A stretch of 64,000 nucleotides of DNA from Escherichia coli (GTDB lineage Bacteria > Pseudomonadota > Gammaproteobacteria > Enterobacterales > Enterobacteriaceae), in NCBI RefSeq assembly GCF_001677475.2, contig NZ_CP015229.1; one strand, written 5' to 3'. Shown piece by piece: positions 29,014-64,000 of the stretch. Each line of letters starts with the position of its first letter. Position 1 is the stretch's first letter. The translations under genes were made by a program, and so were the position numbers. The notes below the pieces were generated by a model that searched no databases, was not told the origin of the DNA, and saw only the letters and a list, made by a program, of their open reading frames with translations.

Positions 29014-29040
29014 TGTATTGATTCACTTGAAGTACGAAAA
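29014..29040 (+). repeat. Prophage left terminal transposase-binding site (L1-like)
   Basis: Begins with 5'-TG; sequence matches the recalled Mu attL terminus. Confidence 0.75.
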
Positions 29041-35734: not shown

Positions 35735-35909
35735 GTCAACTGGCTTTGTCCTGCTGGTTGGCACCTGCGGGAATGATGCCTGCGATGCCATTCCGGTAAC
35801 GGAAAAAATCTGGCCCACAGAGCAGGCATGTATGCAGGTGATGGAGCGCATACAAAAACGTTATCCCAGTGAAATCTTTTATTGCGAAGAGGTATTACGA
35901 AATGAATAA
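35727..35909 (+). CDS. Hypothetical small protein with N-terminal hydrophobic segment
   Basis: 60 aa from ATG 35727 overlapping the preceding stop; MIKSTGFVLLVGTCGNDAC resembles a signal/lipoprotein-like N-terminus but is not a canonical lipobox. Confidence 0.4.
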   Translation: MIKSTGFVLLVGTCGNDACDAIPVTEKIWPTEQACMQVMERIQKRYPSEIFYCEEVLRNE

Positions 35910-59482: not shown

Positions 59483-60013
59483 ATGGAACTCAGAAACGTC
59501 ACGCGTTATTACCCGGAAGAAATGCCTTATGGTGAAAACATTCAGTATTTCCGCAGTGAAGACGGACAGGATTTTTATGAATCACTGGATAAATTCACGA
59601 AGAAATACAAATTGTGTATTCACCCTGACACAGGCGTGATTTTTTCGATGGCGGAAGATGTGTCCCGTCTTTATCCGGCTGGTTTCACTATTGTGGAAGT
59701 GGACGAACTGCCGGAGGGTTTTGGCATTGAAGCCTGCTGGTATTACCTGGATGGCGAAGTGCTGCCGGTTCCGGTTGATTATTCGCAACTGGCAGAAAAG
59801 CAACGCCAGCGTCTTCTGGCTGAAGCCAGGGACATCACCTCCGACTGGCGAACCGAGCTGGATCTGGGCACCATCAGCGACGATGACAAAGCCCGTCTTA
59901 CGCAGTGGATGGCATATATCAAAGCGGTGAAGGCGCTGGATTTAAGCACCGTTACTGATGAAGCCTCCTTTAATGCCATCAACTGGCCGGAGCGTCCCGA
60001 TGCCGCAGCTTAA
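59483..60013 (+). CDS. Tail fibre assembly chaperone 1
   Basis: 176 aa from ATG 59483 with AAGGAG Shine-Dalgarno; follows fibre 1. Confidence 0.65.
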   Translation: MELRNVTRYYPEEMPYGENIQYFRSEDGQDFYESLDKFTKKYKLCIHPDTGVIFSMAEDVSRLYPAGFTIVEVDELPEGFGIEACWYYLDGEVLPVPVDYSQLAEKQRQRLLAEARDITSDWRTELDLGTISDDDKARLTQWMAYIKAVKALDLSTVTDEASFNAINWPERPDAAA

Positions 60014-62249
60014 AGGTGTGATTAAAACGCCCACGGGAGAAGCGCTGGGCGGCGCAACCATTACTCTGACCTCCCTGCACAACCGTGCAGGGATCCTGAA
60101 AGGTGTTTTCAGCCACGTAACCACACAGAGCGGGGAGTACGACTTTTCCGTTCAGCCGGGTGTGTACAGCGTTCGCCTGACACAAAGCGAACAGCGCCTT
60201 TCAGAAATCGGTGTCATTCGTGTTTATGAAGATTCACAGGACGGTTCACTGAATGATTTTCTGGGTGCAACCGATATTGACCTGCGCCCGGAAGCCCTGA
60301 AGAAATTCGAAGAACTGGCGCAACAGGCGCAGCAAAGCGCGGAAGAAGCCGGAGAGCACGCGGACGCGGCTGAACAGGCCCGCCAGGATACAGAAACCCT
60401 CGCCGGGGAAATACGGCAGGATGCAGAAGAAATTGCAGGCAATGTGCAGAAAGCTGAAGAGCTTGCCTCTGAAACCAGTCAGAATGCAGCCCGCGCAGAG
60501 CAGGCCGTTAAGGATGCCGACACGATAGTCCGGAAAGCGGTCGATAAACTTGCTGATGCTGCAACGCTGACCGGCGAGGCAAAAGCCAGTGCCAAAGCTG
60601 CCGCACAAAGCGAACAGAATGCGGAAAATCACGCTGATAATGCAGCACAAAGCGCACAGCAGACCGCACAGGATGTGCAGGCAACGGTAACAGCCCGCAG
60701 TGATGCGGAACGTTTTGCGGGTGAGGCAGAAAACAGCGCACAGTCATCAGGCACAGCGCGGGACGAATCAGTCGATGCCGCCGAACGCGCCCGCCTTTAT
60801 CATAATGCCGCATCATCAGCTGCAACCAGCGCGGAAAATGCAGCAAATGCTGCACTCGGGCATGAAAACAGCGCCGCCGAATACGCCCGACAGGCTAAAG
60901 CCAGCCAGGATGCAGGTGCAGACAATGCGCAGGAAGCGAAACAGTACAGGGATGAGGCGCAGCAGATAGTTGATGACCTGAATGCAACAAATGCCTCCAC
61001 GACAGAAAAAGGTCTGGTGCAACTGTGTAGTGATACGGACAACGACAGCGAGGAACTGGCTGCCACGCCAAAGGCTGTCAAAACCGTCATGGACGAGACG
61101 AAAACAAAAGCGCCACTGGACAGCCCGGCCTTCACCGGCACCCCAACCACCCCAACCCCACCGGATGATGCCGCCGGTCTGGAAGCAGCGAACGCAGCGT
61201 TTGTGCGCAAACTGCTTGCTGCGCTGGTTGGCTCATCGCCGGAAGTTCTGGACACCCTGAACGAGCTGGCAGCGGCGCTGGGCAATGACCCGAACTTTGC
61301 GACGACAATCACAAACGCGCTGGCAGGCAAACAACCGCTTAATGACGTCTTAACGGCAATCAGCGCACTGACGCAACGGGCAGATAATCTTCTGTACTTC
61401 AATACAGACGGGAATGCCTCACTGTCTCTGCTGTCAGAGAAGGGCCGCGCATTGCTGGCGCATGACACGGCTGAAGCCATGCGCACGGAGCTTGAGCTGA
61501 GCACGGCTGCGACGATGGAACCCCAGAGTGATATCCGTGACCGCACACCGGGCAGGCTGGCCCTGTCCGGGATGTATGGGTTTGGACAGGCATTCACCAG
61601 CGCCGAAGCTCTGTCATTTAACGGACAGGCTGATTTCGTTATATGGCTGCAGACAGTCACCCCGGGGCGTTATGCGGTCAGTATTGCGGACTCCTCCACG
61701 CTGCTGGTGGGCACCACGAAATTTAACGGTATCATTGATGTGATGTGGTCACCCTCTGATAACGATGGTTCAGACTCAGCGCGTAAATTCAAAACGCTGC
61801 TGTACTACAACCAGTATTACGAGGATGAGCACAGCATACATTGTATGCGTTATCGCTACAGTGGTAACAGCTGGAATGCAACATCAAGCCTTATTGTGTA
61901 TGACGGCAACTCCCTGGCATATCTGATGTCCTCAACCGCCGGTAATGGTCCGTTCTCATATTACCAATACCCGGCCGTCGGTGTGCCGATTATGGCGGTA
62001 TATCAGGGAGAAAGTTTTGGTGAAAATGCTTCTCTGGGACTCGGTGATACTGTGCCGGGTTCCCGTCTTGGTCCTCTGGCCATGAGTGCACAGGTTAGTG
62101 ATACAGGGACATACGCATCCTCACCGCAGGTTGTGATTGGCGGTGCCGGTGAATACAACTTCCCCGGTCGTTACACGGCGCTTTCGGGCCTGGGTAACAA
62201 TTATGGTACTCAGCGTGGCTTTATCGGTCTTTTTGTACGCATTGAGTAA
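60000..62249 (+). CDS. Tail fibre protein 2 (lambda Stf-like side tail fibre)
   Basis: 749 aa from ATG 60000; N-terminus (KGVIKTPTGEALGGATITL, YEDSQDGSLNDFL) and central region (ELAATPKAVKTVMDETKTKAPLDSPAFTGTPT, LNELAAALGNDPNFATTITNALAGKQP) match recalled lambda Stf; Ala/Glu/Gln-rich repeat shaft. Confidence 0.8.
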   Translation: MPQLKGVIKTPTGEALGGATITLTSLHNRAGILKGVFSHVTTQSGEYDFSVQPGVYSVRLTQSEQRLSEIGVIRVYEDSQDGSLNDFLGATDIDLRPEALKKFEELAQQAQQSAEEAGEHADAAEQARQDTETLAGEIRQDAEEIAGNVQKAEELASETSQNAARAEQAVKDADTIVRKAVDKLADAATLTGEAKASAKAAAQSEQNAENHADNAAQSAQQTAQDVQATVTARSDAERFAGEAENSAQSSGTARDESVDAAERARLYHNAASSAATSAENAANAALGHENSAAEYARQAKASQDAGADNAQEAKQYRDEAQQIVDDLNATNASTTEKGLVQLCSDTDNDSEELAATPKAVKTVMDETKTKAPLDSPAFTGTPTTPTPPDDAAGLEAANAAFVRKLLAALVGSSPEVLDTLNELAAALGNDPNFATTITNALAGKQPLNDVLTAISALTQRADNLLYFNTDGNASLSLLSEKGRALLAHDTAEAMRTELELSTAATMEPQSDIRDRTPGRLALSGMYGFGQAFTSAEALSFNGQADFVIWLQTVTPGRYAVSIADSSTLLVGTTKFNGIIDVMWSPSDNDGSDSARKFKTLLYYNQYYEDEHSIHCMRYRYSGNSWNATSSLIVYDGNSLAYLMSSTAGNGPFSYYQYPAVGVPIMAVYQGESFGENASLGLGDTVPGSRLGPLAMSAQVSDTGTYASSPQVVIGGAGEYNFPGRYTALSGLGNNYGTQRGFIGLFVRIE

Positions 62250-62263
62250 TGAGGAAATCAGGC

Positions 62264-62839
62264 ATGAAAATCAGAGCGGTGAAAGGTATCAGAAACGCAC
62301 ATTATCTTGAAAATGGTGCGGTTGACTGCGAGGTGTTATTTGAAGGTGAAACGGAGTTCGCCCTGTATACTGCCATACAGGATGATATGGCCCCGACAGG
62401 CCAGCACATCTGGCAGGAGCTGCAAAGCGGGAAATGGGGCGAAATCGCCCCGTTCACCGTCACGCCGGAACTTATTGCAGCGGCAAAGGATGCCAAAAGG
62501 CGGGAAATTGAGGCATGGCGCGACAGTCAGGAAAACGTTGAGTTTATTTTCACGTTTGATGGCCGTCGTTTTGATGGCGGAAAAACCTCGCAGTCACGCC
62601 TTGCCCCCGTGGTTGCAGCAGCGCAGGCCGGACTGCTTCCGGAGGGATTTTTCTGGACTGATGCGGATAATAACAACGTCGTACTGACCAGGGAGAAACT
62701 TATTGCGCTGAACGATGCCATGATGGTGGCCATGGTGGCGGAGGGCTTTAAAATCCACGAACGCCAGCGCGAGATGAAAGAGCAACTTTCCCTGCTGTCC
62801 ACACTGAGCGATATAAGAGCGTTAACGCCCGGTTATTAA
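62264..62839 (+). CDS. Tail fibre assembly chaperone 2
   Basis: 191 aa from ATG 62264 with GAGGA Shine-Dalgarno (alternative ATG 62249 overlaps the fibre stop). Confidence 0.6.
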   Translation: MKIRAVKGIRNAHYLENGAVDCEVLFEGETEFALYTAIQDDMAPTGQHIWQELQSGKWGEIAPFTVTPELIAAAKDAKRREIEAWRDSQENVEFIFTFDGRRFDGGKTSQSRLAPVVAAAQAGLLPEGFFWTDADNNNVVLTREKLIALNDAMMVAMVAEGFKIHERQREMKEQLSLLSTLSDIRALTPGY

Positions 62840-62863
62840 GTCATCATTTTGTATAGTTTATAA

Positions 62864-62887
62864 CGATCGATACAATCGTATCGATCG
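62864..62887. promoter_or_regulatory. GATC-containing inverted repeat upstream of com/mom; candidate Dam-methylation-sensitive operator
   Basis: CGATCGATAC-AATC-GTATCGATCG; two GATC sites at 62865-62868 and 62883-62886, about 75-100 bp upstream of com. Confidence 0.5.
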
Positions 62888-62961
62888 TCAGTTTGCATCA
62901 TCTGTGATTAAATACCCTGGCCCTCAGGGCTATCGTATCTGGTTAATACACAGGTGGGATC

Positions 62962-63147
62962 ATGGATGCTGTTCGTTGTAAAAACTGCAATAAATTGCTG
63001 TTTAAAGGAAGTTTTAAGCATATAGAAATCAAATGCCCTCGTTGTAAACGTTACATTGTCATGTCGAGTGCCCGGGAGCATCCCACGGAGCTGTATTGTG
63101 GGAAAAGAGAAGAAATCACGCATCCTTACAAAACCCTGCGTTATTGA
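62962..63147 (+). CDS. com: Com zinc-finger translational activator of mom
   Basis: 61 aa; CKNC...CPRC...C..H zinc-finger pattern as in Mu Com; overlaps the mom start. Confidence 0.8.
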
Positions 63148-63793
63148 GTATGAAGGCCGTATTGTCGGCTATGGTTCAAGGGAACTGCGCGTTGAAACCA
63201 TATCCTGCTGGCTGGCCCGCACAATCATTCAGACAAAGCACTATTCCCGCCGTTTTGTGAATAACTCCTGGTTGCATCTGGGGGTATTCAGCGGACGTGA
63301 TCTGGTTGGCGTTCTCCAGTGGGGATACGCCCTTAATCCCAACTCAGGGCGTCGGGTCGTGCTGGAAACGGATAACCGGGGCTATATGGAACTGAACCGC
63401 ATGTGGTTACACGACGACATGCCCCGCAACTCTGAATCACGGGCTATCAGCTACGCACTGAAAACCATCAGGTTACTGTATCCATCAGTGGAGTGGGTTC
63501 AGTCCTTTGCAGACGAACGCTGCGGACGTGCAGGTGTTGTGTATCAGGCATCTAATTTTGATTTTATTGGTAGCCATGAAAGCACGTTCTACGAGCTGGA
63601 CGGCGAGTGGTATCACGAGATAACGATGAACGCGATTAAGCGTGGAGGACAACGAGGCGAGTATTTGCGGGCTAATAAGGAGCGGGCGGTGGTACACAAA
63701 TTTAATCAGTATCGCTACATCAGATTCCTGAACAAGCGCGCAAAAAAGCGACTAAATACTAAGCTATTCAGGATTCAGCCATACCCGAAGTGA
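63098..63793 (+). CDS. mom: Mom DNA modification protein
   Basis: 231 aa if initiated at GTG 63098 (Mu Mom length) with GGAG 7 nt upstream; the track ORF starts at TTG 63056; overlaps com. Confidence 0.8.
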
Positions 63794-63815
63794 TCCCACG
63801 TAATGAATAAAAAAG

Positions 63816-63835
63816 CAGCGGCCAATGCCGCTGTT

Positions 63836-63839
<4 letters not shown>
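63816..63839 (+). terminator. Rho-independent terminator after mom
   Basis: CAGCGGC-CAAT-GCCGCTG hairpin followed by TTTTAT. Confidence 0.6.
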
Positions 63840-63999
<160 letters not shown>

Positions 64000-64000
64000 A

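Follow-up and report, generated by a model that had tools for sequence, protein, structure and literature searches.

The last 1.1 kb of the window, by which we mean the whole stretch of 64,000 nucleotides of Escherichia coli DNA that was analysed, carries a com-mom operon on the + strand. We consider it very likely that a hairpin at 63081-63103 in this operon is a functional translation inhibition structure (TIS) of the phage Mu type, that GTG 63098 inside it is the mom start codon, and that Com relieves the block through a second hairpin at 63068-63081. The element is a fresh instance of the already well-studied Mu switch, and an ordinary copy of it. An earlier note on this DNA, made from the letters alone, had proposed a match to the Mu mechanism, and the comparison supports it: both arms of the TIS match Mu at every base, as do the Shine-Dalgarno sequence and the GTG, and the Com-binding hairpin is kept. 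We infer the Com-dependence of the window copy from this homology.

Both open reading frames of the operon are intact. The first gene, com (62962-63147, + strand, with its TGA stop codon at 63145-63147), is identified from the open reading frame list and Pfam as encoding the translational activator of mom, a zinc-ribbon protein of the CCCC type with 61 aa. Its product matches Zn_ribbon_Com (PF10122, E=2.2e-7, over the curated cut-off) and is only 69% identical to Mu Com, with all four zinc-ligand cysteines aligned and kept. The second gene, mom (63098-63793, + strand), overlaps com by 50 nt and, on the basis of Pfam and Mu homology, encodes an adenine-modifying enzyme of 231 aa counted from the GTG (PF25680 Mom, E=1e-75; about 96-97% amino acid identity to Mu Mom). 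From 62972 onward, the nucleotide sequence is 88-89% identical to the com-mom regions of Mu, SfMu and D108. The operon ends at a bidirectional, intrinsic-terminator-like hairpin at 63812-63837, which has 11-nt arms that are 91% complementary and T-runs on both strands. Directly past this terminator, the stretch 63837-63917 carries three direct repeats of TATCTTGAA(T/A)A (at 63837, 63872 and 63894) as well as two copies of TGCGCGCTT (at 63857 and 63909), and is unlike the Mu right end.

The operon stands at the right side of a Mu-like prophage (29014-63845), whose left end at 29014 corresponds to the Mu genome start/attL (TGTATTGATTCACTTGAAGTACGAAAAA). From there to 63845 the prophage is collinear with Mu, and the regulators are present. 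The attL-end sequence has no match in 63790-64000, so the right end of the prophage appears to lie beyond 64000. Amino acid identity to Mu is ~66% in the early region, ~40% for the structural genes and 96-97% for Mom, with ~78% for the com-mom segment overall. The gin/G invertible segment found upstream in Mu is absent; a 763-aa tail fibre gene (59958-62249) and a gene for a DUF4376 protein (62249-62839) stand before com. The promoter region that follows them (62840-62961) shows no similarity to Mu Pmom, the match to Mu beginning only at 62972. Within this region, ~75 nt 5' of the com ATG, lies a perfect 11-bp inverted repeat, ACGATCGATAC / GTATCGATCGT (62863-62888), with a 4-nt spacer and two GATC (Dam) sites. 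By analogy, this repeat may be the counterpart of the Dam/OxyR-controlled region of Mu Pmom.

The earlier note had described a CCCAC-N11-GTGGG stem-loop within the 3' end of com, with the mom start in its right arm and the GGAG Shine-Dalgarno in its loop. Its coordinates proved exact (CCCAC at 63082-63086, the spacer GGAGCTGTATT at 63087-63097 and GTGGG at 63098-63102), the sequence places the hairpin in the last 67 nt of com, and the RNA folding it had called for returns a stem with GUG in the 3' arm. The five core pairs were thus confirmed, but the stem is longer: RNAfold predicts 8 bp between a 5' arm, UCCCACGG (63081-63088), and a 3' arm, UUGUGGGA (63096-63103), closing a 7-nt loop, AGCUGUA (63089-63095), all on the + strand. 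The pairs are U63081-A63103, C82-G102, C83-G101, C84-G100, A85-U99, C86-G98, G87·U97 and G88·U96. The placement of the GGAG in the loop holds for its second half, whereas its first two bases, G87 and G88, are predicted to be paired at the top of the stem, with unpaired probabilities of 0.11-0.17 and 0.25-0.48, respectively. This Shine-Dalgarno sequence (63087-63090, + strand) lies 7 nt ahead of the GTG and aligns with the annotated ribosome binding site of the curated Mu record, AF083977.

Predicted folding energies are -7.3 kcal/mol for the 5-bp stem, -9.3 for the 8-bp stem and -10.8 with the Com-binding hairpin included. In 56-, 121- and 321-nt contexts alike, the minimum free energy (MFE) structure contains the TIS, whose core pairs have probabilities of 0.53-0.90 (1.00 in Mu). 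The start codon GUG (63098-63100, + strand) is paired within the 3' arm; in the ensembles of the 121- and 321-nt contexts, each of its three bases has a paired fraction of 95% or more, and in the 56-nt context its first G is unpaired with a probability of 0.39. The 92-nt MFE structure contains an alternative hairpin at 63077-63092, AGC(A)UCC-CAC-GGAGCU (-4.8 kcal/mol), that competes with both the Com-binding hairpin and the TIS and would sequester the Shine-Dalgarno sequence too. It is specific to the window and is enabled by the loop substitution GCU, where Mu has AAA. A direct repeat, GCTGTATTGTGGG / GCCGTATTGTCGG (63090-63102 and 63156-63168; 85% identical, 66 nt apart), joins the 3' arm of the TIS to a stretch inside mom and is possibly due to chance.

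The putative Com-binding hairpin, GUGC-CCGGGA-GCAU (63068-63081, + strand), was assigned by homology to Mu. It consists of 4 bp (G68·U81, U69-A80, G70-C79 and C71-G78) and a 6-nt loop with CC(N)GAG. Its counterpart in Mu, AUGC-CUGCGA-GCAU, corresponds to the 19-mer Com target (PMC6483171); relative to it, the A>G change in the window retains a G·U pair and the loop retains C...GA. As predicted, the hairpin is weak (-2.7 kcal/mol, pair probability 0-0.34). It is adjacent to the TIS, with which it shares only U63081, and the two structures are compatible rather than competing. As the sequence directly shows, the Com SELEX motif is matched a second time at 63083-63090 (+ strand), by CC-ACG-GAG, which spans the TIS 5' arm and the Shine-Dalgarno sequence. 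Such motifs overlap the TIS in Mu too (PMC6483171), and Com probably binds this one in the window as well. Elsewhere in the window, we saw no enrichment of the core motif GCCNNNGAGC (14 matches vs 9.1 expected) and thus no sign of further Com targets. In the window, the loop of the Com-binding hairpin might also pair with the start region in an extended helix; judged by inspection, this pairing is weaker than in Mu, and we dropped it.

In the models of Hattman and of Wulczyn and Kahmann, as relayed in PMC6483171, the Mu TIS holds the Mom GUG in its stem. According to the same account, the target of Mu Com is a short hairpin with a six-nucleotide loop that directly precedes the TIS on its 5' side; Com recognises it through CC(N)2-3GAG, whereupon the start signals become exposed, and the structure of the Mu TIS has been probed experimentally in work cited there. 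The opening itself is said to occur "by the unknown mode" (PMC6483171). Phage Mu and the window share the gene order, the 50-nt overlap, both TIS arms, the GGAG, the GUG and the 7-nt spacing between the latter two; the Com-binding hairpin stands at the same place in both and agrees in its inner pairs and in the C...GA ends of its loop. The differences are confined in the TIS to four loop nucleotides (CUGU in the window, AAAC in Mu) and in the Com-binding hairpin to the loop (CCGGGA vs CUGCGA) and the outer pair (G·U vs A-U). The ATG that stands upstream of the mom start in Mu is a GTG in the window. Beyond these, the modest identity of the two Com proteins, the unrelated promoter region and the alternative hairpin at 63077-63092 set the window apart from Mu.

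By analogy with Mu, the switch would operate as follows. The com-mom mRNA would fold such that GUG 63098 and half of the Shine-Dalgarno sequence are held in the 8-bp hairpin, so that Mom synthesis is blocked. The same mRNA also yields Com, which would bind the adjoining 5' hairpin via its CC..GAG loop, and probably also the overlapping CC-ACG-GAG of the TIS 5' arm, and its binding would shift the RNA to a form in which the Shine-Dalgarno sequence and GUG are accessible. A toxic DNA-modifying enzyme would thus be made only late, and only once Com has accumulated. The shared U63081 and the second CC-ACG-GAG motif would fit a model in which Com captures the open form. An analogy to HIV-1 TAR-Tat has been drawn by Hattman and in PMC6483171: Tat and Com are each a small basic or zinc-binding viral protein, and the target is in each case a hexaloop with CC(N)GAG closed by C-G. 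TAR-Tat nevertheless has no evolutionary relation to the Com system, and it acts on transcription elongation rather than translation initiation.

On thermodynamics alone, the TIS stands only weakly above chance. The 29-nt segment has a shuffle z-score of -2.26, with 6 of 200 shuffles folding equally well, and 6.3% of random 29-mers drawn from the window do so too; in the 41-, 91- and 92-nt contexts, the shuffle energy z-scores are not significant. When the 57 predicted gene starts in the window are compared over positions -20 to +8, the mom start is the most structured (-9.3 kcal/mol vs a mean of -2.7 +/- 2.1), and none of the other 56 is as low. Energy alone cannot establish the hairpin, and the comparative evidence is decisive. 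For this comparison, we combined 43 related loci from viral contigs with Mu-type loci from genomes, which gave 36 distinct Mu-type sequences covering com through the mom start. Among these, 31 of the 34 codons in the 5' portion of com vary at their third position, as opposed to 2 of 13 in 63065-63103. Variation in the two TIS arms is limited to 1 of 9 columns and 1 of 8 columns, in both cases through one sequence only, and the arm singleton C>U in locus L013 retains a U·G pair. In the loop, 63091-63095 is variable in all five columns.

It could be argued that the inverted repeat is a by-product of coding for the Com EHPTE..CGKRE motif and the Mom N-terminus, with no regulatory role here. The 3' arm does lie within two overlapping reading frames and is also constrained by the start codon itself, the energy is unexceptional against shuffles in the longer contexts, and the Mu-type group holds no compensatory double change in the stem; the stem being invariant, no positive covariation can come from it. 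Against this, the third bases of the com codons CCC, ACG and GAG in the 5' arm are invariant, although mom is non-coding there and these com positions are synonymous. In the true double-coding stretch (63104-63147), 50% of columns vary among the 36 Mu-type sequences, as opposed to 11-12% in the arms. Since the arms vary less than this stretch, and the 5' arm lies outside mom, their invariance exceeds what overlapping frames would impose. Distant lineages with unrelated Com C-termini again have the start codon predicted in a helix, and the Mu structure has, according to PMC6483171, been probed experimentally. We therefore regard a mere by-product of coding as most improbable. It is also very unlikely, in our judgement, that the element is intact while the module is silent or decaying, for example because its promoter is not activated, which would make the hairpin a fossil. 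The promoter region, dissimilar to Mu Pmom, could be read in this way, as could the closest E. coli copy, that of strain RM9088 (L116, 3099-4930; 99.5% identical), in which mom is cut after 420 nt by IS21-like and IS66-family elements. In the window, however, both open reading frames are intact, Mom has kept its near-identity to the Mu protein, and collinearity with Mu holds from attL (29014) onwards, with the regulators present. The same promoter type is found in dozens of E. coli genomes, and the RNA elements show a strong purifying pattern, which speaks for a function that is still in use.

A further alternative is that Mom initiates upstream, at GTG 63068 or TTG 63056, in which case the hairpin would be internal to the gene and initiation would not be occluded by it. 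Both codons share the mom frame, which has no stop codon as far back as 63026, and the GenBank records of SfMu (L002, 500-1225) and D108 (L003, 500-1237) annotate mom from an ATG 30 nt 5' of the GUG, inside the Com-binding hairpin, that is homologous to GTG 63068. Neither upstream codon has a Shine-Dalgarno sequence, whereas GTG 63098 is preceded by GGAG at 7-nt spacing. The earlier note had named initiation at TTG 63056 as the case that would refute its reading, and this was not borne out: the equivalent of this codon is shut off by in-frame stops 5' of the -30 codon, TAA and TGA in Mu and TAA in L041. The -30 codon itself is removed in L062 by an in-frame TAA two codons 5' of the GTG, which leaves only TTG(-3) or GTG. 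Conservation of an (A/G)UG at -30 is explained by its being part of the 5' arm of the Com-binding hairpin. L048 leaves an ATG as the sole possible start, at a distance of 32 nt from the hairpin 5' end, and the frame of Pseudomonas phage JD024 opens 3 nt ahead of the only possible ATG. Across 39 loci, moreover, an in-frame mom start follows the 5' end of a Com-type hairpin at a spacing of 24-36 nt (mostly 29-35), and the 30 nt that separate the hairpin from the GUG in the window fall inside this range. These observations make upstream initiation highly unlikely.

The assignment of the mom start to GUG 63098, inside the hairpin, is thus supported by sequence comparison. The codon is in frame, gives a product that ends at 63793 and has the 231 aa stated in the note, and aligns with the GTG at the start of the mom coding sequence in AF083977 (35907), just as GGAG 63087-63090 aligns with the ribosome binding site at 35896-35899 (alignment A1). 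The curated Mu record, PMC6483171 and the NCBI annotation pipeline PGAP all use this GUG, the last of these in the RM9088 copy. The mom starts annotated in the SfMu and D108 records are probably mis-called, their products being 10 aa longer than that of the Mu record. For annotation, the value of this result is that the mom start can be placed, with comparative support, at GTG 63098 (231 aa) and that these two records are probably 10 codons too long.

To place the element in its wider family, we scanned one genome per species with a Mom alignment and obtained 66 loci, which come from Gammaproteobacteria, Alphaproteobacteria and Deltaproteobacteria (Desulfovibrio and relatives) and a few other groups. 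A Com-like zinc-ribbon open reading frame overlaps mom in ~40 of the 66. The Com-type hairpins of the 39 loci mentioned above came from a pattern search (NNGC-C(N2-4)GA-GCNN) that fixed nothing but the two inner pairs and both ends of the loop. Covariation was counted on the 25 loci with 6-nt loops (alignment A4), since MAFFT misplaced the gap for 5-nt loops (A3). Across these 25 loci, the stem is 99% paired and shows 15 double-sided changes, values that none of 500 shuffles reach. The outer two pairs, which the search pattern leaves unconstrained, are complementary in 99% of cells and occur as A-U, G-C and G·U at one position and as C-G, G-C and U-A at the other. The hairpin is found in two different com codon phases, where it encodes unrelated peptides (e.g. 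NACEH, ERPRAS and AGRGAS), indicating that it is conserved at the RNA level. Many non-Mu loci carry two Com-type hairpins ~22 nt apart (for instance, at 581/606 in L048, 578/600 in L049, 1090/1112 in L068 and 1084/1106 in L069). The pairing recalls the bipartite SELEX motif GAGNNCC(N)2-3GAGNNCC (PMC6483171) and, by analogy, suggests two Com molecules per mRNA.

In the non-Mu loci (Pseudomonas phages JD024 and PAN70, Desulfovibrio, Azospirillum, Telmatospirillum, Rhodopseudomonas and others), as in the window, the Com open reading frame overlaps the 5' end of mom, the start codon is predicted in a helix and the Shine-Dalgarno sequence lies in or near the loop. Unlike in the window, the partner of the start codon in the MFE structure of 26 of 31 representatives is the very sequence of the Com hairpin, and the resulting helices have energies of -19 to -36 kcal/mol. 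When the Com hairpin is imposed on the fold, the average cost is 9.7 kcal/mol in the non-Mu representatives vs 0.7 in seven Mu-type representatives including the window, where it stands next to the TIS and is compatible with it. Complementarity between start region and hairpin exceeds that of shuffles in 21 of the 31 non-Mu representatives (p<=0.05). In most non-Mu lineages, we thus predict mutually exclusive folds, with the start codon helix set against the Com hairpin. Column-wise covariation of this long helix in the non-Mu alignment (A5) was no better than in shuffles or after a -1 slide (57.5% of cells paired), the register of the helix differing between lineages, and RNAalifold recovered only the 4-bp Com hairpin from A5. 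With a negative covariation test, the prediction of mutually exclusive folds rests on per-sequence folding and duplex z-scores.

Com control is not universal for Mom, since Mom loci without com exist. Homologues with 67-69% identity that lack com occur in Aeromonas phage pAEv1818 (L047), Serratia (L057, L058 and L061) and Yersinia (L059 and L060); in pAEv1818, mom lies downstream of the antiterminator Q gene. With com absent, these loci were uninformative as comparison material and were set aside. The com-mom element is without an Rfam family: cmscan of 62800-63400 at E<=10 returned three matches to miRNA and snoRNA families, all at chance level. In the searchable literature, which does not extend to the classical subscription papers such as Hattman's 1999 review, we found no comparative description of a family-wide Com hairpin; the family-wide hairpin and its two architectures may be new.

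We give roughly even credence to a broader reading, in which the element of Mu and the window is one variant of a widespread, uncurated protein-dependent RNA switch. Com would capture a small hairpin and thereby prevent a long inhibitory helix from forming, and Mu, with its two hairpins side by side, would represent a modified form of this scheme that perhaps relies on the second CC-ACG-GAG motif. In summary, the com-mom comparison points to the Com hairpin as an RNA element conserved far beyond Mu. The predicted mutually exclusive folds offer a testable model for translation activation by a 62-aa zinc-finger protein whose mechanism is still called unknown in the literature consulted, and the family-wide Com hairpin would justify a new curated RNA family.
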